Below are positions 680 through 34,707 of a stretch of DNA of 64,000 nt, in pieces (position 1 is the stretch's first letter; each line of letters begins with the position of its first letter). The notes beneath the pieces are model-generated. The model was not told the origin of the DNA, searched no databases, and saw only the letters and a list, made by a program, of their open reading frames with translations. The DNA is taken from the NCBI GenBank assembly GCA_041538025.1, contig JBGOEV010000007.1, positions 1,891 to 65,890 on the forward strand, read 5' to 3'. The position numbers and the translations under genes were made by a program. The stretch comes from Candidatus Thermosaccharophagus gerlachensis (GTDB lineage Bacteria > Armatimonadota > Fervidibacteria > Fervidibacterales > Thermosaccharophagaceae).

Positions 680-1528
680 TTACCACTCCTTTCTCATCCA
701 GTATAATGTCCAAAAATTTGGCATTTTTGCGTCCTCCCAGCCAAGTGAAAGCAACTTCTCCTCATCAACATGCGGTATTGGCAAGCTCACGCCGAGCCAA
801 CGCTTCCCATAGCAAGAGCACACATACTCAAGTCCGTTCAACATTGAGAGCATGTAATCAAAATCTTTGGCAAAAATTTTGGAAATTACTACAAGCTCTG
901 GTGTTAGTCGTGCTGTGGTAGCAATTGCCACACCGACAATTTCATTTCGTCTTTCGCCAAGCAGTGACAGGTGTGGGTCATCAGCAAGCGAGCTGAAAAA
1001 CTTTGAAGCTGTATCAAGATACTCCTTTTCTTCGCCGAAAAACTTGAGAAGCCTCGGCAGGTCATCTAAAGAGAGATTTTTTAGCGAGATTTTTTGTGGC
1101 TTGTCTACATTCCTTTGCGAGAGGTTGAGCACAAGCTTCTTTTGTATGTTGACACATTTATAGCCATATTTTTCGTAAAATTTTCGTGCAAAGGGTGTCC
1201 CAAGTTCAACAATCCTCAAACCAGCCTTGTTTGCTTTTTCCTCAATGGCTTTGAGCAACTTGCCACCGATGCCCTTCCTCCAATGTGCTGGATGAACGGC
1301 GATCCACGAGATAAATGCCCTATCCTCACCTGGCTTGCCTACAAGGAATCCGACAATTCTACCATCAACTTCGGCTACAAACTGCCAATCTGGGAAATTG
1401 CGCAAATGCTCAACTAAGCCAACGCCAAATAGCCAAGGCAACCTTGCCTCTTCCAGAAACGCGCAGTTTGCAACCCTAACTATCGCTGCTATGTCCTTGG
1501 GGAGAGCATGCCTTATCGTTACCTCCAT
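680..1528 (-). CDS. GNAT-family N-acetyltransferase
   Basis: ORF 680..1537. Acetyl-CoA-binding-type motif WIAVHPAHWRKGIGGKLL. Best-spaced start is ATG 1528 (AAGGTGA-N5-ATG). Confidence 0.7.
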   Translation of the reverse strand: MEVTIRHALPKDIAAIVRVANCAFLEEARLPWLFGVGLVEHLRNFPDWQFVAEVDGRIVGFLVGKPGEDRAFISWIAVHPAHWRKGIGGKLLKAIEEKANKAGLRIVELGTPFARKFYEKYGYKCVNIQKKLVLNLSQRNVDKPQKISLKNLSLDDLPRLLKFFGEEKEYLDTASKFFSSLADDPHLSLLGERRNEIVGVAIATTARLTPELVVISKIFAKDFDYMLSMLNGLEYVCSCYGKRWLGVSLPIPHVDEEKLLSLGWEDAKMPNFWTLYWMRKEW

Positions 1529-1575
1529 CAACATCACCTTCCAAACTACAATTATAGCGTAATGTTGTCTTTTGC

Positions 1576-2691
1576 TTACTGTCCCTTGGCTATCCTTACG
1601 AACGTTTCTTCATCAACTTTGAGCCTCAATGGGAGTGGGTCTTTCCAGCGCTGGCGGAAGGCGAAGCCAGCGATAACCCAAATTTCGCCCTTACGACGCT
1701 CAAATAAGTAAGGATAGCTCAACTGCCCTCCGGGCTGCCGAGCGAGGACGACTGGCTTTGTCCATGTTTTTCCATCGTCTTCGGAGAAAGCAATTGAAAG
1801 TTCCTCACGATGCCATGATGAAGGAAACTCCGTATGCTGAGGCAAGACACTTTTTTGCCAGATACGCCCCTCTGGATTGAGCCTGTTCCATACCAAGACT
1901 AACCTACCGCTTTTCAAACGGAGAAGGTATCCGGGTGAATTGCTGGCATCAATCTGGCTTGGTTGAATAATCCGCCAGTATCGTCCACCATCGTCAGAGA
2001 TTGCCTGCCAGAACCTGTCAAGGCTCGTTCTGATGAGCATCAAAAGCCGACCGTCACTCAATTCCGCAACTGTTGGCTCCATAGCACCATCGTGGTGTCC
2101 ATGTCCGCCCAAGTCAATCCAATTGCTTCTTCTCCATGTTTTGCCCTCATCATCAGAATAAAAGGAACAAGCAACAAGCCTTCCTGGATTGTGTGTTAAA
2201 TGCTCAAGTGGGACAACGATTCTCCCCGTGCTGGTTTGAATCAACCCAAAAAAGTTGGCATTGTAACCGCCAAGCAATCGTTGGTTATCAATCCAAGTCT
2301 TACCGCCATCTAAACTGCGTATCGCCCAAACTTCCAACTTACAACCTTCCTTTGGTTCCTTTTTTTCTTCATCCCACTCAAAACGACGCTCACTGAAGTT
2401 CAAGTAGACAAGGATAAGCGTATTGTTACGGGTCCGCAGCAGGTAATAAGAGGCAGGCTCCTTTGGATTAATACCTTCGCAAACAGGGATAGCTTCAGAC
2501 CATGTTTTTCCATCATCCTTACTGATGCGGAAGCCTTGAGCATCAACAGTTGCTAAACTACCATCAGCTAATTCTACAAATGGACCGTTACGATCGATCT
2601 CCAAAGGTTGCGCCATCGGGTGAACCCACCTCTCACCGACTATTTCCGCATTCAATAGCCCAAAATTAACAAAAAGCAACATGCTTACCAT
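1576..2691 (-). CDS. secreted BNR/Asp-box beta-propeller protein, sialidase-like (GH33-like fold)
   Basis: Five Asp boxes: SKDDGKTW, SLDGGKTW, SDDEGKTW, SDDGGRYW, SEDDGKTW. Sialidase-like MEPTVAELSDGRLLMLIRT and LSYPYL segments. Hydrophobic N-terminus MVSMLLFVNFGLLNA. Strong SD. Confidence 0.6.
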   Translation of the reverse strand: MVSMLLFVNFGLLNAEIVGERWVHPMAQPLEIDRNGPFVELADGSLATVDAQGFRISKDDGKTWSEAIPVCEGINPKEPASYYLLRTRNNTLILVYLNFSERRFEWDEEKKEPKEGCKLEVWAIRSLDGGKTWIDNQRLLGGYNANFFGLIQTSTGRIVVPLEHLTHNPGRLVACSFYSDDEGKTWRRSNWIDLGGHGHHDGAMEPTVAELSDGRLLMLIRTSLDRFWQAISDDGGRYWRIIQPSQIDASNSPGYLLRLKSGRLVLVWNRLNPEGRIWQKSVLPQHTEFPSSWHREELSIAFSEDDGKTWTKPVVLARQPGGQLSYPYLFERRKGEIWVIAGFAFRQRWKDPLPLRLKVDEETFVRIAKGQ

Positions 2692-2752
2692 TTCACCTCA
2701 CCCCTCCAATCAAAGGATTTAAGCTCCAACCTTCGACGGAGAACCCTCTAAA

Positions 2753-5700
2753 TCATTCAACAAACCATTCAATAACCCTAACTTCGCCCGGACTTAGAGC
2801 AATTTGACGAGTGAGAAGTTTCCCCCAACTCCATTGAGCAACACTCCTCACCTTAATCTTCTTCTTCTTGGGAGTTGGGTTATGCAAGTAAACGCTAAAC
2901 TTTTTCTCCCCAGTTTGAACGACATTTATGAAGATTTCCTTATCATCACAAACGATGGGATGCCCGATGAAGATATCCTTGTCACCTTCGCGCAAGTCCA
3001 TCGTCACATAAGCGCTATCTCCCAGTTGCCCTATTGGTCTTGCCCTTTTCTTATCCCTTTCCAGCAGAAACACACTCCAACGCTCCTGCAATCCCTTGAC
3101 CACTATAGGAAGTGTTAAAGGCAAATCGGCTTTACCGATTTTGCCGGAAAACCCTTCCCCTTCTCCATCAACCTCCAAGATGTATTTTTGCCCAATTACT
3201 TTCCCTTTCTCCACCTTTAAGCTGTATCCAACATTCCCTGCCAACCCCATTGTTTCCCTCACCCATTCAATCCACTTCTCATCGGGCTCAACTGTAAAGG
3301 GTGTTCCAACGACCAGAACCTTTGCTATCAAGCTTCCCCCTTTCTCCACAATCTTCCCTTCTACTGGAAAACGAATTCCCCAACTTGGGCTATCTTTTTG
3401 GGCATAAACATCCAAGGGTTCACTGCTCAGATTGAAAACGGCAACTGAGCCCATAGGGGAACCACAAAACGCTATGTATCCGTCTCTACTTAAGCTTATT
3501 TTTTGCCAAGCTTTCAATTCATCGGGTGTTTTCTCGCTCGATAATAATCTCCCCTCCTGAGTGCGGATGAACCATCTCTTAGCACCAGCTTTATAAAATT
3601 GCCCTAAAACGAGCCTCTCGATCTTCACTTTCTCCTTAAACTTTATTTCCAATTCTGCAACGATTGAAGAAAAGAGCCCCGGTCTGAGATTGAAATATGT
3701 GCGGGTTATTTTTGCTTCGATAAGCTTTGATGGATTAGCAGGGGCTAATGTGTGCCAGACATTTAAGGCAGGAACTTCAGGGGGATAAAACCCATCGCTC
3801 TTGCCATAGCCCATCATCAAATCGGCACTATGCAGAAGCCTGTCAGTCCAAATCCTTCCTCGACTCAAATCTTCCTCTCCCTTATCGCATTTTATTGATG
3901 GATTTATCCAAAGCACTGGGTCGCCTCCGGGGGCACCGTCAAAGCCGGGAATCATCCCACCAAGGCGATTATCGGGCTTATAAGTTGAGGAAGGTGCAAT
4001 TAGCCCAGCCCCATCCCAAGGTCCCTTGTTAGGGGTCATTCCAAAGGTAAAACCACTTTGCGCTCCTGTTCCATCCTCCCTTCTCTGCATGCTATAAGAG
4101 AGCTGGTTCATCCTGTCACCGCACATGAACTCCTCAAGCAACGGTTGAGGACGATCAAAAAGCTCCATCGTGATGGCTTGCCTTCCCTTCAAATCCTTTG
4201 CTATGACGAAAAGGTTATGCTGCTGACCGTGATTGAAATCCTCCTCCCAGTCGAAGTATTTAGCCCCTCTTGGATAGAAATGCCTTATTAACTCCTCGCC
4301 ATCGTAAATCATTACCTCTTTCAAACCGACATCCGATGCTATGGCGAGCCTCAGTCTCCAACGCCAATGCGTCCAGTCAAACCAATCATAGCTCTCATAA
4401 TCCCTCGGACCAATAAAACGCCATTCCAGAATACGAGGTCCATTTGAAACATAACGAAGGTGGCAATAAGGAGGCATAGAGGGATGCCAAGAGGAAAATT
4501 GCTCTTTCAAATCGTTTAAATCCGACGCCTCAAAATAGTTCACGTATCCTTCTTTTAAAGCTTTTTCCAACTGCTTCGGCTCATTCACCAAGCTTATAGC
4601 AAAGGGCCAGAGAGATTCACCTCTATTTTGAAGGTGCTTGTATCCTTCAATCAATTCATCCAAAAGTTTCAGCTTCCCTTCACGAAAATCCTGACTGAAA
4701 ATAGCAACAGCATCGTAGGCTCTAAATTCATAGTAAGGGCAGGGATTTTTCGAATGCCACCATGAGCCAATGGTGAGATTCATTCTGTTGAGATTGTGCA
4801 TCCAATCCAGTAAGACATACCCAGCTTGACCGGGGACCTTTGTATCAGGGTGAGTTGTAGCAAAACGCTTCTTATCATCGGTAAGAAGATGCTCATCTGG
4901 ATAGCGGGTGCGGTAACCCGCTGCAAAATAATGATTCCCGTAACCGTCCTCAAAGCGGAACCCGGGCACAGCTAAGAAATCCTTCCCTGAGACGGCTTCG
5001 CATTCTTTGACAAGCTTTTCCCACGATTCCCTCGGTAGATTGGAAAAATCCTCCAAAAAAACTATGAAATCGCACCCTAATGAACGAGCAAGTTTGGCAT
5101 AATCCTCCACCTTTCCTTTTCCCCCAGATATCTCGGTTTGAGCTCCAACTATCCCTCTAAAAACCTTTGGAGGCGGAGGAAAACGAGCACTGCTCCAATC
5201 CCATGGAGGAATTTGCGGGAGCTTTGGTTCAGTGAGAAGCCGAGCAGGCGTTTTAGCGCCTCCAAATCTCCCTGACTTCAACGAAGGCTCAGAAAGCCAA
5301 TGAAGAGTGTTAAGGAGAAGACGCAAGAAATCGCTTGGCTGGTTGTTAAGACCGCTTTCCATGACTATCCCCCTCAAAGCAGTGGCATACCCACCCCAAA
5401 AATGATAGGATGAGTTTATAGAGCAAAGGGCAATCCTTCCCTCGCCATAGGACCGGATGGCAAAGATAGGTGGAGCTGAAATTCCCTCTTTAGTTATCCT
5501 TTCTGTAGGCAATCCCCTTGCATGGCTTTCCCACAGCACGCTTTTTGAAGAGGCTTCGCCTCGGATGACCACTTGCCAATCGCTACTAACATCAAAGGTT
5601 AAAGTGGAAGAAGCTCCTCCTGCCCCTTCGGTAACTGGATACCAAATGAGACGAACTCCTTCACTAACAGGCGATGGGGAGATGTTGCTTGTGTAGGCAA

Positions 5701-6127
5701 ACTTTATTCCCCACGGGGTGCCACCGTCTTTCTCCCTTTCTCTATCGTGGACTGTTTCAGGGCGAAGGCGAGCACCTATTTGATCAAGAAGACGAAATTG
5801 TCCATCCCAATCCTCCAAATGCTCTCCTTTCCAAAGGCTGATGAAGAGCCCACCTCCCTCTTTTACAAAGCTAAGGAGGATCCCTCTTTCCTTGTCGCTT
5901 AAATAAGCACCTCCCCTCAGCAGAACGACCACATTGAACTGCTTAATGTAACTCTCATTAGGGAAATCCCAACGCCAGTCAAACTCAAAACCTGCCTCCA
6001 ACAGTTTCCTGGCAACTTCCCTATCCTGTAACCCGGTCTGAAGAAAAAGTATAGAGGGTTTGGGCTGAGCGAGGACAAAGCGAAGGAATCCAAAAAGGAA
6101 AAGGGAGATTAGGGAAATCTTCATCAT
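2753..6127 (-). CDS. large secreted protein of unknown function (~1124 aa) with an N-terminal class-I-glutamine-amidotransferase-like/ThuA-like module
   Basis: ORF 2753..6202. Likely start is ATGATG at 6127 after GGAGGAGG, giving signal peptide MMKISLISLFLFGFLRFVLAQP. N-terminal pattern ILFLQTG...FNVVVLLRGG...FVKEGGGLFISL. I recognised no catalytic motif. Confidence 0.5.
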   Translation of the reverse strand: MMKISLISLFLFGFLRFVLAQPKPSILFLQTGLQDREVARKLLEAGFEFDWRWDFPNESYIKQFNVVVLLRGGAYLSDKERGILLSFVKEGGGLFISLWKGEHLEDWDGQFRLLDQIGARLRPETVHDREREKDGGTPWGIKFAYTSNISPSPVSEGVRLIWYPVTEGAGGASSTLTFDVSSDWQVVIRGEASSKSVLWESHARGLPTERITKEGISAPPIFAIRSYGEGRIALCSINSSYHFWGGYATALRGIVMESGLNNQPSDFLRLLLNTLHWLSEPSLKSGRFGGAKTPARLLTEPKLPQIPPWDWSSARFPPPPKVFRGIVGAQTEISGGKGKVEDYAKLARSLGCDFIVFLEDFSNLPRESWEKLVKECEAVSGKDFLAVPGFRFEDGYGNHYFAAGYRTRYPDEHLLTDDKKRFATTHPDTKVPGQAGYVLLDWMHNLNRMNLTIGSWWHSKNPCPYYEFRAYDAVAIFSQDFREGKLKLLDELIEGYKHLQNRGESLWPFAISLVNEPKQLEKALKEGYVNYFEASDLNDLKEQFSSWHPSMPPYCHLRYVSNGPRILEWRFIGPRDYESYDWFDWTHWRWRLRLAIASDVGLKEVMIYDGEELIRHFYPRGAKYFDWEEDFNHGQQHNLFVIAKDLKGRQAITMELFDRPQPLLEEFMCGDRMNQLSYSMQRREDGTGAQSGFTFGMTPNKGPWDGAGLIAPSSTYKPDNRLGGMIPGFDGAPGGDPVLWINPSIKCDKGEEDLSRGRIWTDRLLHSADLMMGYGKSDGFYPPEVPALNVWHTLAPANPSKLIEAKITRTYFNLRPGLFSSIVAELEIKFKEKVKIERLVLGQFYKAGAKRWFIRTQEGRLLSSEKTPDELKAWQKISLSRDGYIAFCGSPMGSVAVFNLSSEPLDVYAQKDSPSWGIRFPVEGKIVEKGGSLIAKVLVVGTPFTVEPDEKWIEWVRETMGLAGNVGYSLKVEKGKVIGQKYILEVDGEGEGFSGKIGKADLPLTLPIVVKGLQERWSVFLLERDKKRARPIGQLGDSAYVTMDLREGDKDIFIGHPIVCDDKEIFINVVQTGEKKFSVYLHNPTPKKKKIKVRSVAQWSWGKLLTRQIALSPGEVRVIEWFVE

Positions 6128-6266
6128 GATCCTCTGCCTCCTCCAAAATCTGGCAAGGAGAAACACAGTAGCAAGCGAAACCGTTCTAATGTTATTGGGC
6201 ATTACCCCTCACCACCTTCTTAAGGTATTTTTGCAATTTGACACAGCTCAACCCATAAAACCACCC

Positions 6267-9200
6267 TTAACGAAGCAGAGTGAGAAGTTCCTGAGCTGCC
6301 TTTCTCACTCCAGCTGGGTCACTACCTGTCACCAAGATGACATCTTTCCCCAACGCAAACGGAGACCAGGAATATTCCAAGAGCCCCCTTCCCTTCCCTG
6401 GGAAATAGTCGTTTGCAACAAAGGGCAGGATACTTGCCCTCTGTAAAGCCTTAATAAGAGTGCTTGAGCTATCGGTTCCCACGAGGATGAGATCCTCCCC
6501 CACCTCAAAGGCATCTGGAAGAGTAGGTGGATAGCCGTTTTCCCCCGCCCATATTCGGAGCTTAACCCATGGCTTTCTCCTCCTTTCCCTTTCTTCCTCT
6601 GTTACCTCAAACCATTTCTCCCCTCTTTTCTCAATTGCTGGGAAAACTTTCGGATATCTTCCCTTCCTCCAAACAAGGTGCTCATCTTCCACGAAAACCG
6701 AAATCCCCTTTGCCCTCAAACGCTCACAAAGCTCCTTTGCTATTTCCTTTTCCTCCTCGCTCGCCTTCTCTCCCACCACGATGATTATCTTCCTGCCGGA
6801 TTTCAAGAGCGAGCGAATTGCCGACGCATCACATGTAAGGACATCGGGAATGATCTTCAGCTTAGAAGGGGGTGAAGTTGGAACACTTATTTCAACCACT
6901 TCCTTCTTCCCGCTAAAAAGCTCCTCCACGCTTATCCTCCATTTGCCAGGAGTTTCATTGGAGCCAATTGGTATGCTTTCCTTATAAACGCCTTTGGAAT
7001 CGGTGGAGCGCCAAAGTTGTATTTGATCTCCCTGTGCATCTGTGATTGTTACCTTCAAGGGCAAAGCAGCAGATATCAGACGGTTCCCTTTTCCATAGCA
7101 ATTAGCGGTCAATTCAAGAAACCTCCCCTGCTTTGCCACCATCTTTGCCCTCAGTCTAACTTGCTCAATTGGTTGGGGAAGAATGGCGATGATCTTCATT
7201 TCCGTAGGCTCAAAATCGAGTTTAAGCGATGCCCCGGGCTTTAAAGTGAGTCTCCTTGTCGTTGCCCAATCCCTTCCTTCCAAGATATAAACCGCTTCCC
7301 CGCTGCGAAGGGCATTAAACTTAACGGTAACCCCTTTTAACTCGTCCCAATCCGAAGCAGGATAGAGCTTTACCTTCCGACCTTTTATTTCCCTCTCCAC
7401 TTCCTGAGGGGACGCTCTTTGAGCATCGTTGAGGAGAAGGTAGTATCTTCCTTCCCCACTTACCCATTTCCCCGGTATAATTCCCCTTTTGCTGACCTCT
7501 ATCTCAAACTTCCCAAGAGTTTGAGCAAGCACGGTAGACAAAACATCGGCATATTCATCGAGCAGAGCATCGCTTACTGCCTGTCGCATTATCTTGCTTG
7601 CTTCGGTGTAATTCTCTTTGCTCATAAGTTCATTGGCGGTCTTTTCCAGATCTTCTATCCGATGCACATACGAAGACATGTCTATTGGGATTCTACTAAT
7701 TTGCAGTTCGGGAGGAGACCAACTCGTGGTTGTATCAGCGAACAGCTTCCCACCACTCCTTTGAAAATCCCGAATCCTATTCACAATTTCTTTAGGAAGA
7801 GGATGCTTAATCCCTACAAGGAAAAGCGCTTTTCTCCCTTTCAAACCGTCCTCTTTTAACTCCCATTCGTGGATCAAATCAACCGTGTATCCAGCACGAC
7901 GGATAGCGTGGTAGAGAGCAAAACACTCATAGGCATAATTCCTTGGGATGCGATAGATTTCGCTATTTGGGACTTCCCCTGCTTCCTTAAGACGCATAGC
8001 AGCCTCGGTGAATGAATAGAGAACCCCAATTGGATGGCGGGCAGGCAAGGTAGCGAGGATGAAATCGCCGAATTTCCTAATTCTTTCAAAAGACGGTTTG
8101 AGGTTTTTTGCGCTCTGAAAATTGAGATGCCAAAGCATTCCCACACCATCCATAACAGCATAATTTGTGACCATCTCGGCGAGTGAAACCTCATCTGGGC
8201 TATTTGGGGTGAAATAAGTCGTATTGGAGGCGAAATGAAAGCGTTTATCCCTTCTTCCAACTTTCTCAAGCGCGAAGTGCCATGATTGCTCGGCTACCCC
8301 TCGCCAAAACATGAAGGAATGAGTTGTTGGAATATCGTTTAGCCTTTGAAGGAATGGATTTGTCCCATCGTTTATCGCAAATGAGGCATAGATATCCTGT
8401 CCCCAAGGAAGTTCTGGGTCGACTTTCTTAACATGCTGTTTCGCTTCTTTGAAAAACTCACCCATAATGTTAGCCCGCCAATGCATCCATGAAAGCCATT
8501 CGTCCTGGGGAAGCTCGCGAGGATCGGAGGGCAGTGGGCGTTTTAAGACTTTTTCAGAAGCTAAACGAGTAAAGAAATCGGGGAACAAGGAAAAAGCCTG
8601 CCCAGAAAAACGACCTTCCTTCACGATGCCATAATTTAAGCCTGGCTCATCCATCCCGCCAAGCGAAGCGACGGTGCTTATAAACCTCCTTGCCTGCTGA
8701 GCTCCCAACTCAGCCCTCTGCATCGCTACCTTCCTTATTTCAGGATCGAGGAATGAAGCCATAGATTCAAAGGGCTGATGGAGAACATATCCACTCCATA
8801 ACCCCTGCCAAACAAAGCCCTTTAGCCCGTTAGAAATCAGCCTCTCCACTCCTCTCTCAAACATGGAAGGAGTTAAAGGATCGGGGATGAAGTTCCCTTC
8901 TCCATCCACCTTGGCGTAATTGTAAAGGTCAAGGTAAACCCAAGTTGCACCAATTTTTAAGTTCTCTTCAAGGGGAGCGGTTGAACCAATGAGGAAATGG
9001 GTGGGAGGCAAAATTGAGGAAATATGAAGTTCTTCTTTCCCCACTACTTTACCGTTTATTTGGGCAATCAGGTGATATCTCCCCGGTTTTAGGAAGTAGG
9101 CTGGCAGCTGCCAAACAACGGTTTCTCCTCCTTTCAAGCTCATCTTCTCTTTTAAGAGTTGATATGGGGCAGATGAAGTTTTTCCTGCTTGGGCGTAGAT

Positions 9201-9368
9201 ACACAGTTCTCCAGAAACATCCTTCGGAGAAAAAAGCCCAAAATAGATCTTCTCACTTTGCCAAAATGCCTTTCTCGGCTCGCATATGAACAGCTTAAGT
9301 TCGGGGTCGGAAAGAACTGGAGGGGAAACAATAAAGAAAAAAAGCAATGCAAAGCATTCTCCAGCCAT
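6267..9368 (-). CDS. large secreted protein of unknown function (~1033 aa), GH42-like architecture (barrel-like region plus amidotransferase-like domain)
   Basis: ORF 6267..9416. Probable start ATG 9368 gives signal-like MAGECFALLFFFIVSPPVLS. Central IGVLYS...AGYTVDLI...KALFLVG...FQRSGGKLFAD resembles the beta-galactosidase trimerisation/GATase1-like domain. Confidence 0.4.
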   Translation of the reverse strand: MAGECFALLFFFIVSPPVLSDPELKLFICEPRKAFWQSEKIYFGLFSPKDVSGELCIYAQAGKTSSAPYQLLKEKMSLKGGETVVWQLPAYFLKPGRYHLIAQINGKVVGKEELHISSILPPTHFLIGSTAPLEENLKIGATWVYLDLYNYAKVDGEGNFIPDPLTPSMFERGVERLISNGLKGFVWQGLWSGYVLHQPFESMASFLDPEIRKVAMQRAELGAQQARRFISTVASLGGMDEPGLNYGIVKEGRFSGQAFSLFPDFFTRLASEKVLKRPLPSDPRELPQDEWLSWMHWRANIMGEFFKEAKQHVKKVDPELPWGQDIYASFAINDGTNPFLQRLNDIPTTHSFMFWRGVAEQSWHFALEKVGRRDKRFHFASNTTYFTPNSPDEVSLAEMVTNYAVMDGVGMLWHLNFQSAKNLKPSFERIRKFGDFILATLPARHPIGVLYSFTEAAMRLKEAGEVPNSEIYRIPRNYAYECFALYHAIRRAGYTVDLIHEWELKEDGLKGRKALFLVGIKHPLPKEIVNRIRDFQRSGGKLFADTTTSWSPPELQISRIPIDMSSYVHRIEDLEKTANELMSKENYTEASKIMRQAVSDALLDEYADVLSTVLAQTLGKFEIEVSKRGIIPGKWVSGEGRYYLLLNDAQRASPQEVEREIKGRKVKLYPASDWDELKGVTVKFNALRSGEAVYILEGRDWATTRRLTLKPGASLKLDFEPTEMKIIAILPQPIEQVRLRAKMVAKQGRFLELTANCYGKGNRLISAALPLKVTITDAQGDQIQLWRSTDSKGVYKESIPIGSNETPGKWRISVEELFSGKKEVVEISVPTSPPSKLKIIPDVLTCDASAIRSLLKSGRKIIIVVGEKASEEEKEIAKELCERLRAKGISVFVEDEHLVWRKGRYPKVFPAIEKRGEKWFEVTEEERERRRKPWVKLRIWAGENGYPPTLPDAFEVGEDLILVGTDSSSTLIKALQRASILPFVANDYFPGKGRGLLEYSWSPFALGKDVILVTGSDPAGVRKAAQELLTLLR

Positions 9369-9468
9369 TCTTCTTAAATTCTCGCCTTTTACCTTGTTGG
9401 ATGCCTCCCTGCCCACCCTCCTACACCCCCCTTACAAACCTGACTACAATGGTAAAAAGCAGTCTTTT

Positions 9469-10650
9469 TCACCATCTTAAGTTTATGAGATAAACCTGCC
9501 TTGTGCCCTCATGAGTTGAATTGAAGACGATCATATCCCCATTGGGAGACCAACAGGGATGCAAATCGCATCTCCAGTATCCGGGGATTTGAGGGTTGTA
9601 AAACCTTGGAGGTTCATAGAAGTTCCCAAGAGATAAGACGGCATTCGTCTCCATATCCATCAAAAATAAGCTTTGATTCCCCAACGCATCCCGATACCTA
9701 TCCATAACCATCCATTTCCCATCAGGAGAAAACGTTCCATGCCCATCGTGGTCCAAAAGCCCTTTCCCAAGGACTTCGTAATCGCCTTTGCCATCCGTAA
9801 AAAGAATTGGGCACCACTTTTTGCCCTCATATCGCGCAGTTACCATCAGCTTATCAGCTGTGAGCCAATCAAAATGAGAGCCTGACCATTCCCAAGGAGA
9901 GGGGAAACAAGCTCGCAGTTCCTTCCCATCGGAACCAACCGTCATTGAAGCTGTGTGAAACCCTCCTCCTTTTCTCTGAACTCTCGCTAAAAAGAATATC
10001 CTTTTTCCGTCCTTGCTAAACAAGGTGTGCTCAAAACGCATTAAAGGTCGGGAATCAATATCTTCTGGCAAGCCGAGAAACTCCTTTACCTCATAAATTG
10101 AAAGAATTAGCTCAGATTTCCCGCTCTCTAAGTCTACTACGAAAAGACCATCATCCTCAGGATAAGGGTCATCCACCTTTGGGTCTTCTCCATCCCCATC
10201 ATACCCATAATCCGGTCTTGCAAGACGAAGCCGAGCATAGTTGATGCTCAAAGCCATTTTCTTCTCTGGGAAAACTGCACTAATTGGTCGGGGAATTATC
10301 TTTTCCTTCCCCGAAGCGATATCTTTGATAATTGAGACGAACTTCCCTTCCCTTGCATCGTTGAAGACGATTTTATTTTCGTCCAACCAATGCGCCATAC
10401 ATCCCTGCTGGAAATTCCATGCCCGAGTTTCAGCTATCGGGATAAACTCCCTCGTTTTCAAATCAATTAATCCAAGTGTTGCTACATCTTCTCTTGTAGG
10501 GAGACGATCTTGGACGGTTGTCTCCAAAATTGCTACATACTGTTGGGTTTTATTGAACGGGGATATCCCGTAATAAGTTGCGTGGAGATGTTCCTTCGTT
10601 TTATCCGTTATTCTCGCCACAGTTATTTCTGGAAAAGCAACTGTCGGCAT
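9469..10650 (-). CDS. cytoplasmic beta-propeller protein, oligogalacturonide-lyase-like / TolB-like
   Basis: ORF 9469..10656 (TTG). ATG 10650 has SD GAAGGGG. No signal peptide. The C-terminus DLHPCWSPNGDMIVFNSTHEGTRQVYLINL and overall length resemble PL22 Ogl-type propellers, from memory only. Confidence 0.35.
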   Translation of the reverse strand: MPTVAFPEITVARITDKTKEHLHATYYGISPFNKTQQYVAILETTVQDRLPTREDVATLGLIDLKTREFIPIAETRAWNFQQGCMAHWLDENKIVFNDAREGKFVSIIKDIASGKEKIIPRPISAVFPEKKMALSINYARLRLARPDYGYDGDGEDPKVDDPYPEDDGLFVVDLESGKSELILSIYEVKEFLGLPEDIDSRPLMRFEHTLFSKDGKRIFFLARVQRKGGGFHTASMTVGSDGKELRACFPSPWEWSGSHFDWLTADKLMVTARYEGKKWCPILFTDGKGDYEVLGKGLLDHDGHGTFSPDGKWMVMDRYRDALGNQSLFLMDMETNAVLSLGNFYEPPRFYNPQIPGYWRCDLHPCWSPNGDMIVFNSTHEGTRQVYLINLRW

Positions 10651-10673
10651 TCCCAATACCCCTTCTAAGCTGG

Positions 10674-11426
10674 CTATTTAACTGCAAAAATCTCCCTCAG
10701 ACCTTTCACCACCTGATAATATCTCTCCACTTCCTCCTCTCCTAACACCCCTTGCAAGATCAAAATCTCGTCAAAGTATACTGCTTCTCCGTAGGGTGCG
10801 AGGGAGAGTGAGTTTATGTTATCTTCCTCCCTTAAACCACGAGTTAAGATCCATTTTCCCACCTTTTTCCCATCCTGATAAAGAGTTATCTCCCTACCAC
10901 AGGAGAAAGAAACAATCGTGTTATGCCAAACCCCTCCCCTTAAATCCATCGTCTTCATTACATCAAAGTCGTATATCCCGTTGATGTTTTTGACACCCGG
11001 AAAATGGTAAACTTGGAAAACGGCAGCTGGCTTGGCGAGCGCACACCAAGTATCATTGCCTCCTCCTCTGACAAAACAAGAGATAAAACCTTTGCCATTG
11101 AGTGAGAAAATAACGAAAATATGACCTACCTTATGGTCCTCTTTTAGTGCCCACCAAAGCGAAATCGTCAATAGTTTGTGAGGAGAAAGGAAAGGAGAAC
11201 GCAAGACGAAACTTCTCCTATTTTGACTAAGACATCCTTTCCCAATGAAGCCTTCCGATGATAAAAAAGGAAGATGCTCATCCATTCTTACAAGGTTTAT
11301 CTTCGCTTTTCCATCCTCGCTTTCAAAGTCGTTATAATAAATGACTGCTTTCTCCCTCCCTTCTGGGAAGATGCCAGAGAAAAGTATAGGGGCAAAAAGA
11401 AAGCCAAAAACTAGAATCCTTTCCAT
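10674..11426 (-). CDS. secreted LamG/concanavalin-A-like lectin-fold protein
   Basis: ORF 10674..11435 (GTG). ATG 11426 with AGGTGA SD gives signal peptide MERILVFGFLFAPILFSG. WHNTIVSFSCGREITLYQDGKKVG and VYFDEILILQGVLGEEEV are typical LamG-domain endings. Confidence 0.55.
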   Translation of the reverse strand: MERILVFGFLFAPILFSGIFPEGREKAVIYYNDFESEDGKAKINLVRMDEHLPFLSSEGFIGKGCLSQNRRSFVLRSPFLSPHKLLTISLWWALKEDHKVGHIFVIFSLNGKGFISCFVRGGGNDTWCALAKPAAVFQVYHFPGVKNINGIYDFDVMKTMDLRGGVWHNTIVSFSCGREITLYQDGKKVGKWILTRGLREEDNINSLSLAPYGEAVYFDEILILQGVLGEEEVERYYQVVKGLREIFAVK

Positions 11427-11441
11427 GCTTATCACCTACTC

Positions 11442-14400
11442 TTACTCACTTGGAAGGAGACGAAAGACCTTTAAATCGTGTTTTTTCAGGATGAACCTTA
11501 TAGTATTGTTCACCACTTTCAACTCCTCACCAGTATCAATGTCAATGACTTTATAGCTCTTAAATCCGAGTATATCGGGCTTTATATGAACAATTGCTTC
11601 CTCATCCTTGGACGAATAGGAAGTTATTGCATAAAGTGCCTCCTTGCCAGGAAGGGAGTAGGTGATGCCGGGCAAGTCTGGATTCTCTGCATATATTGGT
11701 TGCTCCCTTTCATCCCAGTATCTGTAAGCCACCATTCCCTTTTCTTCAGCAAGTTTTAGGAATGGTTCTCTGTATTTTTGCCAAAGCTTGCCAAGCTCTG
11801 GCACCCATGTTGCCACAGGACCTAACAAGTCATGGACGAGGGTGACAGCAATATAGGTCTTCTGAATCCAAGGGTCATTTGCCTGTGGACCATGGTCACT
11901 TAGAAGCACTGGCCAAGTGCCGGCTAATTCGCCCGTGGAAACGAGAAGAATGTATTTTCTTGGGAATCTATTGTGCACATCCCCTTCCGAGTAGCGCCAC
12001 TCCCAGTCGTATTGAACGGTGGCGAAGGAATAAAGAGGAAGGATTTGCGTGCTCGTGTTATGGACCATAACAATCGGTTCCATTCCTCTTTCGTTCATGA
12101 AGGTAAATATTCGCTTCTGGAACTCCCTCAATTGCCAAACGCCTGTTGAGGGCATAATCGTGCCATCTTCTTTCTCGTAAGCACCTGTCATCATCGTGTT
12201 AAAGCTGGGGATGAAGAAGTAATTATCGTGGTAAACCCCCTTATTGTTGGCTATTTCAAACGATTTGCCAAACCAGTATAGGGCATAGTCAATATACGAT
12301 TCAGAGGGAACAATTTGAATCTCATAAATTGCATTTTGACCGCGGTATGGATTGTAATTGTTGAGGCACCATTCATCCATAAAAGTTTGGAATTCCTCAC
12401 AAGCTGCATAGGAGGCACGATTATAGTAAAAAACCATGGTTGTCTTGTATCTTGAGCGAAGATTATAGCGGACATGAGCAATAAAACTATTGGTTCTTCC
12501 ATAAGGCTCAAAATATTTCTTCCCCCTTTGGATTACTTCCTCAATCTCATGGTCGGAAAGCTTCCTTTTGTTTCCTTCAGCAAGCATCTTCCAAAGATAC
12601 ATATCTTTTCCTGCTGGATAGACTGAGCCACAATCGCCAAGGGCAAACCAGTTTATATCGGTGCCCAAAAGGGAGAATCTCTCCTTAAACCATCTGTAAC
12701 GCCAACCAGCAAGTCTTGGCTTGACGGGAGCTGCCAATATGCCGAATGTGATTGTTCTGGGCTTGTCTATCACGATTGGCTTATTTATCAGGTTGACTTG
12801 CAATTTTAGGACATTCCCTTCCCTTACAAGCTGAAGATTCGGCTTTTGCGGATCCCAACTCCAACCTTTGTCGTTCTCAGCAAACCAGCAGATCCCCCTT
12901 GTCGGATTGCCAAGGAAAATGTAAGTGCAGAAATTAGGTGGAAAGGTAGATGTCATAAGCTTAGTTGCGTCCCAAACAACACCCTGCCCTTCAGGAACAT
13001 AATCGGTCAAGATGACGCTCCTTATCCCATCTGCCATCGCATGCATCATCCTTGCCATGTTATCCTTTAGAGGGATCTCCAAGATGAGCGAATCTACCCT
13101 CTTAGCAGTTGGCAAAAGCGTTAAATCAACCCTTAAAGTGCCATCGTAATCAAGAGTGGATTTAGATTCGGCTTTCAAATCGCCGAGGGAAAAACTTGCC
13201 CGCATTATCGCCCTGTCATCTGCTTTTTCTTTGAATGAAAGCTTCCCCTTAGTGGTGAAAAATTCCTTTCCCTCAACCACTGCTCGGTAGATCATGGGGG
13301 ACGCAAGGAGCTCCTTCTTGATCCTCAGCTCCTGATCTTCCGTTTTTACCGAGGAAAGAAGCCCCCAATCGTTTGCCTCGTATTCCTTCATTACGGTGAA
13401 AAGTTTCCTGCCTTGAACCTTTATTGGGGTAAAAGGGGGATAAACTTTCCTGCTCTTCCCAAAATTCTTGTGCTCCCATTCAGGGAAAACTTTCCTCTCA
13501 AATCTTTTGATGATTTCGCCTGAAGGAATGTTTTCTCCTTCAGCTTTAGCGGATATTATGTATTTGCCAGAAAGAGGAGGAAGGTCAAAAACTTTTTCAC
13601 ATTTTCCACCTTTAAACTCCTCGCTGTTTATCCTCACCTCTTTGACGATTTTCCCGTTCGGTTTATCCTCCCTTACTTGAAAGCGCAAAGCCTTCAATTT
13701 GGCTCCCTCGGGCAGGGCAGTTATGTCAGCAAGGATGCGCATTTTGTTCAAGTAAGGGTAGTAGGAAAAGAGGAAGTCTATGGGAGGTTTGGCTCTCTCT
13801 GGAGTAGTTATCCACTTCACCTCACTGCTTGCCCTTTTCCAACGGTAACTCCTTGAGTAGTAAATCACTTTTTCATCAGGCGAAGAAACATACACGTTGA
13901 GTTGGAACTTTTCTGACACTGTGTCCTTGAGGGCGATTCCGAAGCTTTTGCTCGTGTGCGGGGCTAAGCTTACTCTTTCCTCCTTAACATCCTCTTGAGA
14001 GTCCCTTTTTACGGAAATTTTTATCCTTACATCCAAAGATTTGTGGGTAGGATTAAGCACATCCAGCGAACAATTGATCTCGCCAAATATTGGGTCAGTC
14101 CTATGGCTGAATTTCGTGACGAGGCAATCATCTCTGCTAAATTTGAAGAGGATATCCCTTTGGGGATTATAACCGTTGTTTCCCAAACAAGACCACGCCC
14201 AAGGTTGCTTGAAATCCCGGCAAAGGTTAATTGCCCATATTCCTTCACTTGCTTTTCTATTTTTAGCGATGCTCTCAATGGGGATCTCAATTTCACAGTG
14301 CCAGAAGCCGTTATGAAATCCATTGGCAATTTTGAAATTTCCTCTCCATCCATAGTAAGCTTGAGTAGGGACTTCCCCTCTTGGATGAGCAAGATAATAG

Positions 14401-14846
14401 GCATACCCAAGAGAATTGCAAAGCATCTGATAAACAATTCCGTTTTCCTCTTGTGGGTTAGGGTCAATCCAGACTTCAACAGCATCGTCAAAAACGATTT
14501 TCTCTATATTCCCTTTCACCTGAGCAAGTATTTTTCCTTCTTTGGGCAGTTCTGAGACAATAGCACAGTAGATTTTATCTTCGGTTGCCCCCACATAACC
14601 TATTGCCCTTCTCGGCTCAAGAACACCATTGAAGGAAAATCCATCAAACCTCACCGAAAAGTGCCATTCACTATCATCAACATAGCCGTCTATTTTAGGA
14701 GGTTGAGGTGCAAGTGGAAGACAGTAAAAATCACCAGCGAAGAGTGATCTGCAAGCCAAAAGGAGGCATAGGAAGCCAAACAGCCTTACCAGTGTTTCCC
14801 TTGCTGTGGATAAGCCCCATGCCCCTTCGCCAAAGAAACTACACAT
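11442..14846 (-). CDS. large secreted protein (1134 aa) with CBM9/DOMON-like N-terminus; possible GH123/DUF4091-like C-terminal region
   Basis: ATG 14846 preceded by AAGGGGGA-N6. Signal-like LVRLFGFLCLLLACRSLFA. The PPKIDGYVDDSEWHF motif is typical of CBM9-like modules. The rest is unassigned. Confidence 0.4.
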   Translation of the reverse strand: MCSFFGEGAWGLSTARETLVRLFGFLCLLLACRSLFAGDFYCLPLAPQPPKIDGYVDDSEWHFSVRFDGFSFNGVLEPRRAIGYVGATEDKIYCAIVSELPKEGKILAQVKGNIEKIVFDDAVEVWIDPNPQEENGIVYQMLCNSLGYAYYLAHPRGEVPTQAYYGWRGNFKIANGFHNGFWHCEIEIPIESIAKNRKASEGIWAINLCRDFKQPWAWSCLGNNGYNPQRDILFKFSRDDCLVTKFSHRTDPIFGEINCSLDVLNPTHKSLDVRIKISVKRDSQEDVKEERVSLAPHTSKSFGIALKDTVSEKFQLNVYVSSPDEKVIYYSRSYRWKRASSEVKWITTPERAKPPIDFLFSYYPYLNKMRILADITALPEGAKLKALRFQVREDKPNGKIVKEVRINSEEFKGGKCEKVFDLPPLSGKYIISAKAEGENIPSGEIIKRFERKVFPEWEHKNFGKSRKVYPPFTPIKVQGRKLFTVMKEYEANDWGLLSSVKTEDQELRIKKELLASPMIYRAVVEGKEFFTTKGKLSFKEKADDRAIMRASFSLGDLKAESKSTLDYDGTLRVDLTLLPTAKRVDSLILEIPLKDNMARMMHAMADGIRSVILTDYVPEGQGVVWDATKLMTSTFPPNFCTYIFLGNPTRGICWFAENDKGWSWDPQKPNLQLVREGNVLKLQVNLINKPIVIDKPRTITFGILAAPVKPRLAGWRYRWFKERFSLLGTDINWFALGDCGSVYPAGKDMYLWKMLAEGNKRKLSDHEIEEVIQRGKKYFEPYGRTNSFIAHVRYNLRSRYKTTMVFYYNRASYAACEEFQTFMDEWCLNNYNPYRGQNAIYEIQIVPSESYIDYALYWFGKSFEIANNKGVYHDNYFFIPSFNTMMTGAYEKEDGTIMPSTGVWQLREFQKRIFTFMNERGMEPIVMVHNTSTQILPLYSFATVQYDWEWRYSEGDVHNRFPRKYILLVSTGELAGTWPVLLSDHGPQANDPWIQKTYIAVTLVHDLLGPVATWVPELGKLWQKYREPFLKLAEEKGMVAYRYWDEREQPIYAENPDLPGITYSLPGKEALYAITSYSSKDEEAIVHIKPDILGFKSYKVIDIDTGEELKVVNNTIRFILKKHDLKVFRLLPSE

Positions 14847-14903
14847 GCAAGATCCCCCTTACACCTTTCGTTTGCATCCTACCACTGCCACATCCACCAT
14901 ACA

Positions 14904-14932
14904 ATTATAACACGGTATTGGGAGAGGCGCAA
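14904..14932 (-). promoter_or_regulatory. candidate sigma70-type promoter for the 14846->680 gene cluster
   Basis: Minus-strand TTGCGC-N17-TATAAT (TATAAT = complement of 14904-14909), about 55 nt upstream of ATG 14846. Confidence 0.35.
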
Positions 14933-15162: not shown

Positions 15163-18321
<3,159 letters not shown>

Positions 18322-18424
18322 TATATTATCGCACTTGTTTCCTCCCACCGCTCTACTTCTGCGCATCAGCAGCCTCATCAGCTACCGATGCCAGACATCT
18401 ATTTAGTTTTGAGTAAATTGTGGT

Positions 18425-18500
18425 TGGTGGACCTGAGCGGACTTGAACCGCTGCCCTCCTGCGTGCAAAGCAGGCGCTCTCCCAACTGAGCTACAGGCCC
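18425..18500 (-). tRNA. tRNA-Ala (UGC), CCA encoded
   Basis: Reverse complement GGGCCTGTAGCTCAGTTGGGAGAGCGCCTGCTTTGCACGCAGGAGGGCAGCGGTTCAAGTCCGCTCAGGTCCACCA. Full cloverleaf, with the G3:U70 alanine identity pair. Confidence 0.95.
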
Positions 18501-18638
18501 ATCTACCTTCGCTGAAATGGGGTGAGCCATTGCTTCGTTTGTTGGTTCAACTTCTGCTGTAATTGGTGGAGTTCCAACGTTTCCCACCATTTGCTGCGAC
18601 TTGGCTCACCCCAAAAATTTTCACCTCTACTTACCATG

Positions 18639-18712
18639 TGGGCCTGCGTGGACTCGAACCACGGACCTCGCCCTTATCAGGGGCGCGCTCTAACCACCTG
18701 AGCTACAGGCCC
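18639..18712 (-). tRNA. tRNA-Ile (GAU), CCA not encoded
   Basis: Reverse complement GGGCCTGTAGCTCAGGTGGTTAGAGCGCGCCCCTGATAAGGGCGAGGTCCGTGGTTCGAGTCCACGCAGGCCCA. Anticodon loop is CTGATAA. Confidence 0.95.
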
Positions 18713-18825
18713 AGATGTAAAACGCCCCTCATATTACACAAAAATTCGTGGAGAGGAGGCAGAAGGGGAAAGCTGTTGGAGCTAATTTCGGCAAGGTGCT
18801 CACGCACCATTGCCTTTAGCTCCTT

Positions 18826-20408
<1,583 letters not shown>

Positions 20409-20540
20409 GGGATGCTGACCTCAGAAGATGAGGTCAGCAAATCTGGCTCGCAAGGCGAATCACTTTATCTTGCGCTTTCCCCTCGCCTCCATCTCCACTG
20501 TTTTGTTTTCAAAGGTTCATTCGCATCGTGCCACTTCTTT

Positions 20541-20728: not shown

Positions 20729-20964
20729 GAGATCCTGCCAGCTGGATCAGAGTGTTAGCTTCGTGTTACTTTTCAATTTAATCGTAACACCAAGTAACGA
20801 TATAGCCCTGCTGATCTGCAACGACAACCCCTCGGCTGTCATAATTGAGCTAACGAGACATAATTTGATTAACGGTATCAACGGCACTGCGTTATGGGTT
20901 TGGAAGCTAAAGCATGTCCTTAGTGGATACAACACTAACCTTACTGGAGTGGAGGTGTCGCAGA

Positions 20965-34271: not shown

Positions 34272-34357
34272 GTCAATTTCACCGTTTAGTCTGTGTGGAA
34301 TTACTTCCACATGCAAATTCTGACACATGTTCAAAAGCGAGGACTGCAAAGAGCAGT

Positions 34358-34387
34358 TTGACAACTTATGGCAAGCGCAGATAAAAT
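34358..34387 (+). promoter_or_regulatory. candidate promoter of the SRP RNA gene
   Basis: TTGACA (34358-34363)-N18-TAAAAT (34382-34387), about 40 nt upstream of the SRP RNA terminal helix. Confidence 0.5.
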
Positions 34388-34428
34388 AAAGAATGCAGAT
34401 GGTTGAAGTTTTGCAACCAGATAGCGAG

Positions 34429-34707
34429 AGCCCAGCCACGCTAGGCGGGGAGCTAGCCGTGCCCTGAACCCGCAACCGGCTATAGCGGGGCTTAATTCCC
34501 AACCCGAGGCTGTTGCCTGTGGAAACGGGCTACATGGCGTTAGCATTGAAGGCTGGGTCCTGCGCGGCGGTAAGGTGTGAATCCCCCAGGTCCGAAAGGA
34601 AGCAAGGGTAAGCACCCAATGCCGAGCGCCGCAGGGTAGCCTGGCTGGAGCTAACACATGTAGCTACGCTCGTAGGCAACTGTCGACGGTGGGTGCGTGG
34701 CTGGGCT
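34429..34707 (+). ncRNA. ffs: signal recognition particle RNA, large (Bacillus-type, Alu-domain-containing) form, ~279 nt
   Basis: Domain IV core CAGGTCCGAAAGGAAGCAAGGGTAAG...GCCGCAGGGTAGCCTGGCTGGAGCTAAC. The 5' Alu-domain block GCTAGGCGGGGAGCTAGCCGTGCCCTGAACCCGCAACCGGCTATAGCGGGGC closely parallels B. subtilis scRNA. Terminal helix AGCCCAGCCACGC / GCGTGGCTGGGCT. Confidence 0.9.

Follow-up and report, generated by a model that had tools for sequence, protein, structure and literature searches.

A probably lineage-specific array of seven genes, most of them for predicted exported proteins of glycoside hydrolase or lectin fold, in Candidatus Thermosaccharophagus gerlachensis

Introduction

The Fervidibacteria, a class of Armatimonadota, are known to degrade polysaccharides and have more than 100 glycoside hydrolases (GHs) (PMC11535203, PMC12485897). 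In Fervidibacter sacchari, the cultivated member of the class and a hyperthermophile that degrades polysaccharides, 117 GHs are annotated, many of which are distant from characterised enzymes (PMC11535203). Thermosaccharophagus is a genus of the same class, and the transfer of GH genes among lineages of Fervidibacteria has been reported (PMC12485897). In this study, a stretch of 64,000 nucleotides (nt) from Candidatus Thermosaccharophagus gerlachensis (assembly GCA_041538025.1, contig JBGOEV010000007.1, positions 1,891 to 65,890; hereafter the window) was analysed with respect to an array of seven minus-strand open reading frames (ORFs) at 680-14846, bounded by a ribosomal RNA (rRNA) operon and nadE and numbered g1 to g7 by coordinate, g7 being the most upstream gene. 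An original prediction, made from the sequence alone, had presented these genes as a candidate undescribed polysaccharide-processing locus. The present analysis leads us to favour, with restrained confidence, the reading that the array is a lineage-specific and probably co-transcribed mosaic of seven genes and not an inherited functional unit. The only deeply conserved unit in it is the g7-g6 pair. The array is a carbohydrate-active enzyme (CAZyme) gene array of a polysaccharide-degrading hot-spring lineage, an ordinary kind of object, built from uncharacterised families.

The resemblance to F. sacchari lies in the common class and in the many exported hyperthermophilic GHs of that organism. 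To the extent tested, the array proteins differ in belonging to none of the dbCAN-type families described for it, and no F. sacchari homologue of g7 was found among the best 80 g7 loci. With the polysaccharide utilization loci (PULs) of Bacteroidota the array shares clustered, co-directional genes for exported glycan-active proteins; it differs from them in having neither SusC/SusD nor a sensor/regulator nor a transporter, and its gene set is not conserved. Because a SusCD pair, a transporter and a regulator are absent, the array is not a PUL.

At the level of single proteins, the g4 model superposes on GH42 and GH164 enzymes over the TIM barrel, the GATase1-like trimerisation domain and a beta-sandwich, and its E257, in a DEP motif, comes after predicted strand 4, the place of the N-E-P acid/base in clan GH-A. 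The differences from GH42/GH164 are the identity of ~10%, a D-E pair instead of N-E, and a predicted strand 7 with an invariant Asn and no nucleophile Glu; g4 also has additional parts, namely an Ig domain at the N-terminus, MG2-like sandwiches and an alpha/beta domain at the C-terminus. The plan of g7 (sandwich, TIM barrel, C-terminal sandwich) is that of GH123/GH36 enzymes such as FpGalNase (8x1b); g7 departs from them in its CBM9-like N-terminal domain and its dedicated LamG partner gene, and only about 150-300 of the 969 positions of Pfam family PF19543 are matched by the g7 family. To our knowledge, no member of the g7 family has been characterised or solved. The g2 protein shares with GH33 the BNR_2 domain, five Asp boxes and an alignment of ~300 residues, from which it differs as a bare propeller without a lectin domain.

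Results

Conservation of the gene order

For the comparison of gene order, 79 g7 loci from five phyla were fetched with flanks of up to 10 kb and searched by tblastn with all seven products. The genes g5, g2 and g1 were present in none of these loci, g4 was present in one, that of a relative at 88% identity, and g3 was present in one, where it was 30% identical and lay on the opposite strand. The order g7-g6-g4-g3-g2-g1 was found, at 82-92% identity and also behind a 23S gene, in the contig of a close relative (L083), and this six-gene order was stable over several metagenome contigs of the close lineage. The gene missing from it, g5, was absent in L083 and in two further contigs, L088 and L089. 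Between g6 and g4 of L083 (6766-6807), g5 is reduced to its first ~10 codons (ATGCCCACGGTCGCTTTTCCAGCC...) and its last codons, which is the scar of an internal deletion of ~1.1 kb, and g5 thus appears dispensable. Other close relatives retain a g5 of 393-402 amino acids (aa).

Moreover, among 42 g4 loci from a metagenome scan, g7-g6-g4 was kept only in two relatives at 86-89% identity and was lost in relatives at 68%. Homologues of g3 and g4 at other levels of identity stand in various neighbourhoods, and a g2 copy of at least 90% identity lies among cell-wall and division genes (Table 1), which suggests that g2 either was transferred recently or has a role connected with the cell envelope. 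Since the order is lost beyond the closest lineage, the seven-gene array appears to be a recent, lineage-specific assembly, which fits the GH transfer reported among Fervidibacteria (PMC12485897). The original prediction had named co-occurrence of the same gene set in relatives as its check, and the loss of these genes as neighbours as grounds against it. The same gene set was kept only at 82-92% identity, with g5 missing even there, so the proposal of an undescribed polysaccharide-processing locus was not supported for the cluster as a whole, but co-occurrence was borne out for the g7-g6 pair.

In PVC-type genomes (L085 5742-19169; L074, L075, L078 and L079), a LacI regulator often precedes g3-like or g7-like genes, as do one or two prepilin-type N_methyl/SBP_bac_10 (DUF1559-like) proteins in the same loci; this arrangement may represent a different glycan-locus organisation.

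The g7-g6 pair

The g6 gene adjoins g7 in 51 of the 79 g7 loci, and of the 68 loci with 900 nt or more of sequence downstream of g7, at least 46 have g6 directly behind g7 in the same orientation. The distance from ORF to ORF is mostly -4 to +25 nt, often with a 4-nt overlap, and g6 may often be translationally coupled to g7. The module occurs in Armatimonadota, Planctomycetota, Lentisphaerota/Victivallales, Verrucomicrobiota and Omnitrophota. Furthermore, in a distant family member, P0103, a LamG domain is fused N-terminally to a CBM9 plus GH123_N body, and the g6 family profile aligns to this LamG domain with a probability of 82.6%; the fusion lends weak support to a functional link between g7 and g6. 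The g6 protein itself is a predicted exported LamG/concanavalin-A-like protein, as had been proposed: Laminin_G_3 is matched by each of the 27 aligned family members, with a best E of 2.9e-14, g6 itself lying just below the Pfam threshold.

Further conserved neighbours of g7 were sought and rejected, as clustering of the 827 flanking ORFs of the 79 loci gave only sporadic partners, namely prepilin-type/DUF1559-like proteins (14 loci), Gfo/Idh/MocA oxidoreductases (10) and regulators (5), and two more groups that recurred proved to be artefacts of antisense ORFs in high-GC loci.

The g7 protein

The AlphaFold2 model of g7 (pLDDT 92.1, pTM 0.89) shows, behind an N-terminal helix, a CBM9-like domain (~40-235), Ig-like sandwiches, a GH123_N-type sandwich (457-604), a (beta/alpha)8 barrel (~697-1035) and a C-terminal sandwich (1039-1132). 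The predicted CBM9-like N-terminus is present as the motif PPKIDG...DDxVEVWID, of which DDxVEVWID is invariant in the family, and similarity to CBM9 is weak (a Pfam match in 3-4 of 29 family members; PDB 4jpq, E 0.05). The match of g7 to PF19543 (IPR045711, GH123_N; E 4.7e-12, 45 bits, cutoff 22) spans residues 457-604 and model positions 326-479, that is, 154 of 969; the family is matched above threshold in 26 of 29 relatives, with a coverage that extends to at most ~300 positions (~283-604). By its model, g7 is built like a TIM-barrel glycosidase, and by Pfam it contains a GH123_N domain.

The assignment of g7 as a GH123 catalytic enzyme was not supported, since no GH123 catalytic domain was recovered by sequence, profile or fold list: a GH123 chain was absent from the phmmer and profile searches of the PDB (E<=1) and from the top 50 Foldseek matches. 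No further GH Pfam family was matched at E<=0.01 in the 29 family members. The lowest Foldseek E-values belonged to GH2 beta-galactosidases (E 1e-13) but with a TM of 0.15, and the solved structures that superposed best were those of GH36 (8x1b, TMt 0.45; 6phu, TMt 0.39). Neither GH36 nor GH27 chains were found for g7 by sequence or profile, and one relative matched Melibiase_C (E 0.0017), the only sequence-level match to clan GH-D.

The polar residues Y872, D874, H929, D947 and E949 are conserved at predicted barrel strand ends. Among them, the invariant D874 and D947/E949 end two predicted strands, 73 residues apart, and are candidate catalytic residues; by analogy, the spacing of these carboxylates may resemble that of the strand-4/strand-6 pair of clan GH-D. 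In the substrate-assisted mechanism of GH123, an adjacent Asp-Glu pair ends barrel strand 4; in g7, the strand ending at 874 carries H-D-N and not D-E, and a conserved D824-E825 falls in a predicted helix. The barrel is as conserved as the binding domain across five phyla, and 269 relatives were found in a scan of one genome per species. The nearest named relative by g7 is Candidatus Thermosaccharophagus yellowstonensis (88% identity). In the metagenome-assembled genome of that organism, the g6 orthologue is split into two ORFs (L002 13418-14202) and the NCBI record of the same contig has g7 split into products of 734 and 386 aa; these splits are either frameshifts or assembly errors.

The g4 protein

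The g4 model (AlphaFold2, pLDDT 87.3, pTM 0.87) consists of an N-terminal Ig-like domain, a GH42/GH164-type TIM barrel (~140-455), a GH42M-type trimerisation domain (~460-575), a helical linker, MG2-like sandwiches (640-850) and a C-terminal alpha/beta domain. Foldseek matched it to the GH42 structures 4uoq, 4uzs and 4ucf (E ~2e-14, TMt 0.50-0.55), to the GH164 beta-mannosidase 6t5o (TMt up to 0.59) and to a GH35-type enzyme, all at ~10% identity; overall, the fold matches ranged from E 1.8e-14 to 1e-10 over ~750 columns and assign to g4 the GH42/GH164 architecture. The barrel with a GATase1-like module that had been read from the sequence was thus recovered by structure prediction and Foldseek. 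At the sequence level, no Pfam match of g4 to Glyco_hydro_42 or GH42M was found, so membership was not established in this way. Among 22 relatives, GH42M was matched in one (E 0.0012) and GHL10 in one (E 0.005), the PDB profile match to 6t5o was weak (E 0.13), and MG2 was matched in 17 of the 22; matches of g4 itself to S_layer_C and MG2 were weak. The family is tiny, with 22 clusters at 90% identity.

In clan GH-A, the acid/base residue lies in an N-E-P motif after strand 4, and the nucleophile Glu comes after strand 7. The substrate-assisted N-acetylhexosaminidases of GH20 and GH123 have a D-E pair after strand 4 and no strand-7 nucleophile. In g4, the motif DEPG (256-259) is strictly conserved (21 of 21 sequences) and comes just past the predicted strand 249-252, and the predicted seventh strand (393-401; strand numbering inferred from DSSP) holds an invariant N398 and no carboxylate. 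Other conserved polar residues near predicted strand ends are D341, D350, D361, H366 and E384. The model thus gives g4 the architecture of clan GH-A and not obviously its two-Glu machinery, and, as a speculation, its D-E pair may recall the substrate-assisted hexosaminidases.

The g3 protein and the three giants compared

The g3 protein comprises a GIFT/GATase1-like domain (~45-330), a PHP-like domain lacking the His ligands (~345-600) and a beta-rich C-terminal half. A search with the single sequence gave no match in Pfam, NCBIfam or the PDB. Searched as a profile against the PDB, g3 matched GIFT domains (IFT52 5fmr, E 4.4e-8; 8bd7, E 1.6e-7; 4jqs, E 2.7e-5; 2gk3, E 2e-4), which places its N-terminus among the GIFT/class-I GATase-like domains; single relatives match ThuA, DUF4350 and ABC_transp_aux. 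The PHP-like domain starts, throughout the family, with GxxGA(R/Q)TxxSxGxGT..EY..AAK.AGLDF.VFLEDF; one homologue, P0158, passes the Pfam PHP threshold (positions 5-64) at the GxxGARTxxSxG...VFLEDF motif, and the profile match to the PHP domain of PolX is weak (E 0.13). No His is conserved in this motif of the family, the His-x-His and Asp-His ligands being replaced throughout, and an identity of g3 as a PHP phosphoesterase was rejected because the metal ligands are absent.

The g3 family counts 2257 representative clusters (50% identity) at E<=1e-3 and 796 at E<=1e-30. Its members are mostly full-length (~1100-1200 aa), no Pfam model exists for it, and it ranges over Verrucomicrobiota, Victivallales, Omnitrophota and others, within the Planctomycetota-Verrucomicrobiota-Chlamydiota (PVC) superphylum and Armatimonadota. 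In a metagenome protein of 2012 aa, P0237, a g3-like half is fused to a GH42-like N-terminal half (Pfam GH42, E 3.8e-5; GH42M), which carries MG2-like sandwiches of the g4 type (hhalign probability 95.8%). This protein hints at a functional link between g4 and g3; as an isolated case it says little.

The products g7, g4 and g3 are, as predicted, the three of more than 1000 aa (1134, 1049 and 1149 aa). They were tried as paralogues, which was rejected because hhalign gave only two common stretches: a GATase1-like stretch between g3 and g4 (probability 47%) and one Ig-like stretch between g3 and g7 (probability 66%). No curated catalytic family was matched by any of the three giants in Pfam, NCBIfam or the PDB, with single sequences or with profiles; their isolated barrel segments matched nothing in Pfam at E<=10, and the profile searches of the PDB added only CBM9-like, MG2/GH42M and GIFT fragments. 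The earlier statement that the giants have no canonical catalytic family is therefore accurate for the sequences, but the folds of g4 and g7 are canonical GH folds.

The smaller products

The g2 protein is a predicted exported, six-bladed propeller of the sialidase type (GH33-like) with five SxDxGxTW Asp boxes, in keeping with the five-Asp-box propeller foreseen for it; it matches Pfam BNR_2 (PF13088) with E 6.1e-40 at a cutoff of 31.4 bits. Residues 32-329 align to the Micromonospora viridifaciens sialidase 1eur (E 1.5e-9), and cluster mates at 90% identity or more carry the JGI names 'sialidase-1' and 'neuraminidase', with the match to the NCBIfam neuraminidase model far below its cutoff. 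For the catalytic Arg triad, the Tyr/Glu nucleophile pair and the acid/base Asp of sialidases, motifs picked out by eye, which are suggestive only, include R34, D50, E205/R221 and the Y325 region, as well as MEPTVAEL...LIRT, with a spacing of 16 from E to R, and SYPYLFE. An alignment aimed at the catalytic residues, made with a spliced query, gave Asp-box matches only.

The g5 protein is a PD40/TolB-type beta-propeller without a signal-like N-terminus (PD40, E 2.4e-12), and its PDB matches are weak ones to TolB (E 0.007-0.1). It had been described as Ogl/TolB-like, of which the TolB part stood; its identification as a PL22 oligogalacturonate lyase was rejected, since Pfam at E<=0.1 gave PD40 only and no Ogl chain was among the PDB matches. 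The g1 protein is a GNAT, as predicted (Acetyltransf_1, E 1.3e-19, 71.1 bits, cutoff 20.7), with an extra C-terminal half. It has no signal-like N-terminus and is predicted to be cytoplasmic, and no equivalog-level match to it was found in NCBIfam.

Array layout, export and transcription

All seven ORFs have homologues or exact copies in the databases and are therefore not chance ORFs; a Candidatus Fervidibacterota protein from a metagenome-assembled genome is 100% identical to g4. In the public record, all seven are labelled 'hypothetical protein' (RUDDFDWM_000546-000552). The seven minus-strand ORFs and the shortness of their gaps were confirmed at the positions first described. From g7 to g1, the gaps are 6, 17, 52, 64, 61 and 38 nt for the longest ORFs; the earlier values of 15, 23, 100, 139, 61 and 47 nt are obtained with first-ATG starts, which the NCBI record uses for g6, g5 and g1, taking a longer start for g3.

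Signal-like N-termini were counted by Kyte-Doolittle hydrophobicity in five products (g7, g6, g4, g3 and g2), one more than had been listed. The maximal 12-residue mean was 2.2-2.7 in these five, 1.1 in g5 and 1.8 in g1, and the five are probably exported. No transporter, TonB-dependent receptor, SusCD pair or regulator was found among the seven products in Pfam and NCBIfam, in agreement with the original prediction, and its description of a mostly exported, glycan-enzyme-like set in operon-like packing was sustained.

Between the 23S rRNA gene and g7, 236 nt past the 3' end of the former and 58 nt before the start of the latter, there is a candidate sigma-70-type promoter (Table 1). The TTGCGC-17-TATAAT that had been proposed here is present, but its -35 hexamer matches only 3 of 6 positions and the site was missed by a consensus scan. 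The aligned site in L083 reads TTTACA-17-TGcTATAGT, its position being kept within an otherwise diverged spacer, and these features give modest support to a real promoter. No terminator-like hairpin and no consensus promoter match was found in any intergenic gap; matches of both kinds were rarer than expected from shuffling (13 against 17.1 for the hairpins, 11 against 18.2 for the promoters). Transcription from the 14904-14932 site may run through g1.

Downstream of the array, a nadE-like ORF runs off the start of the window, and the remainder of the window holds housekeeping genes (ClpC-like, aminotransferase IV, Gfo/Idh/MocA, HisF, IspD, PIN-TRAM and RadA-like). Across the array the GC content is 0.44-0.47, compared with about 0.47-0.49 for the coding sequence of the window; in the g7-g6-g5 segment (10001-14000) it is 0.436-0.443, against about 0.46-0.49 for the other coding sequence. 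The idea of a horizontally acquired island was set aside as a matter of base composition, the GC difference being too small to decide either way.

Table 1. Features of the array, of its surroundings and of selected homologues
Feature	Coordinates	Strand	Remarks
g1	680..1537	-	285 aa; 282 aa from NCBI start at 1528
g2	1576..2691	-	371 aa
g3	2753..6202	-	1149 aa
g4	6267..9416	-	1049 aa
g5	9469..10656	-	395 aa; 393 aa from NCBI start
g6	10674..11435	-	253 aa; 250 aa from NCBI start at 11426
g7	11442..14846	-	1134 aa
Candidate sigma-70-type promoter	14904..14932	-	TTGCGC, 17-nt spacer, TGtTATAAT (TGn extended -10)
rRNA operon: 16S, tRNA-Ile(GAT), tRNA-Ala(TGC), 23S	15168..20409	-	Rfam and ARAGORN; upstream boundary of the array
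g3 homologue, 81% identity			neighbours GH31, peptidase, RecO
g3 homologue, 59% identity			behind LacI regulator and two prepilin-type proteins
g4 homologues, 63%, 47% and about 26-27% identity			three different neighbourhoods
g2 copy, at least 90% identity	L128 10001-11122		directly after murC-murB-ddl-(ftsQ-like)-ftsA and an NTP-transferase gene

Discussion

In the present study, five of the seven products were found to be predicted exported proteins built on GH or lectin folds and drawn from uncharacterised sequence families. According to the mosaic reading, the ancient core would be g7-g6, beside which g4, g3, g2, g1 and g5 would have been assembled only in this lineage, g5 having since been lost in the nearest relatives. 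The exported proteins would act outside the cell on complex glycans. There, the g7 barrel may hydrolyse a glycosidic bond by means of D874 and D947/E949, in a geometry like that of the retaining glycosidases of clan GH-D, while the CBM9-like domain and the LamG partner g6 would hold the substrate, and g4 and g2 would remove other sugars. The genes, the folds, the sizes of the families and the pattern of synteny are shown by the analysis; co-transcription, export, the catalytic residues, any substrate and the glycosidase roles of g7, g4 and g2 are inferred.

Several points weigh against this reading. Membership of a catalytic family is not demonstrable for g7, g4 or g3; the proposals of catalytic residues draw on conservation and predicted strand ends only; no acidic residue ends the predicted seventh barrel strand of g4, which has the invariant N398 there; the PHP-like domain of g3 has no metal ligands; and the lowest-E matches of g7, to GH2, superpose very poorly (TM 0.15), with a TMt of only 0.39-0.45 for GH36. 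In addition, as the 23S rRNA gene stands directly ahead of the array, transcription of the array may be due to read-through or to separate promoters inside it, and tblastn at 1e-5 can miss very divergent neighbours.

The explanation from which the analysis set out, that the seven genes form one locus dedicated to polysaccharide processing, with a single complex substrate and with catalytic families new to science, seems unlikely. The tight co-directional packing behind one upstream promoter-like site, the five predicted exported glycan-enzyme-like proteins, the three giants without a catalytic family at the sequence level and the order kept in the nearest relatives are what such a locus would show, and the P0237 fusion hints in the same direction by linking g4 to g3. 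Nevertheless, the neighbourhood is lost at 81% identity for g3 and at 68% and 63% for g4, g2 at 90% identity or more stands elsewhere among cell-wall and division genes, and g5 was deleted in the nearest relatives with the other genes kept. Moreover, neither a transporter nor a binding protein nor a regulator is encoded in the locus, its folds are standard ones for GHs, and P0237 is a single case. The mosaic synteny would also be explained if independent CAZyme genes with their own promoters had been gathered by transfer or rearrangement and had only general glycan foraging in common, and horizontal transfer of GH genes among Fervidibacteria has been reported (PMC12485897). We regard this as distinctly improbable: there would be room for promoters in the gaps of 52-64 nt that precede g4, g3 and g2, but the gaps of 6-64 nt contain neither terminator-like hairpins nor consensus promoter matches, g7-g6 is clearly one unit, and the six-gene order is stable across the contigs of the close lineage.

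It is also conceivable that the giants are exported binding, scaffold or S-layer-associated surface pseudoenzymes with glycosidase-like folds. As g4 has no carboxylate on predicted strand 7 and the PHP-like domain of g3 no metal ligands, some of the proteins may not be enzymes. The invariant Asn on predicted strand 7 of g4, the PHP-like domain of g3 without His-x-His and Asp-His ligands, the weak S_layer_C and MG2 matches in g4, the many Ig-like sandwiches, the CBM9-like and LamG modules and the want of any GH catalytic-domain family by sequence all accord with this idea, which deserves weight for g3 and some for g4. For the giants as a whole it is very unlikely, since strictly conserved polar residues cluster at the predicted barrel strand ends of g4 and g7, conservation of the g7 barrel over five phyla equals that of the binding domain, and g2 is similar over its full length to active sialidases; the D-E pair without a strand-7 nucleophile may, by analogy, be just as typical of GH20/GH123.

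The mosaic reading leaves the understanding of polysaccharide loci unchanged. The value of the array is that of a pointer to three uncharacterised exported families that are now annotated 'hypothetical' and that are likely thermostable given their source. Of most interest is the g7-g6 pair, which is widespread and would be well suited to establishing a new glycosidase family and the role of a dedicated LamG partner; then the g3 family, with thousands of members and no domain model; and then the motif set of g4, in which a GH42-like fold is combined with an unusual D-E motif and no strand-7 carboxylate. Only tentatively can it be suggested that g7 and g6 form a two-component glycosidase founding a new CAZy family, represented in at least 269 species-level genomes, and that the g3 family performs, with its core of GIFT and PHP-derived domains, an undescribed carbohydrate-active chemistry. 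Characterising the g7-g6, g3 or g4 families would improve the annotation of environmental genomes and could yield thermostable enzymes.

Additional features of the window

No 5S gene was found after the 23S gene or elsewhere in the 64-kb window. The 23S match itself measures 3147 nt against a model of 2925 positions, corresponding to ~220 extra bases. A group I intron (Rfam RF00028, 71.7 bits) lies inside the 23S gene of the 88% relative (L083 75-776), and no intron was reported in the 23S gene of the window. Directly upstream of the 16S gene, a protein of 297 aa (20914-21807, plus strand) carries four HNH_repeat units of the kind associated with homing endonucleases (E 2.7e-29), which is of interest given the intron in the 23S gene of L083. 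Furthermore, a large signal recognition particle (SRP) RNA of the Bacillus type (174.7 bits) was located at 34436-34700 on the plus strand. It overlaps the 5' end of the longest RadA-like ORF (32877-34502, minus strand) by ~67 nt, and the true start of RadA is probably further downstream.

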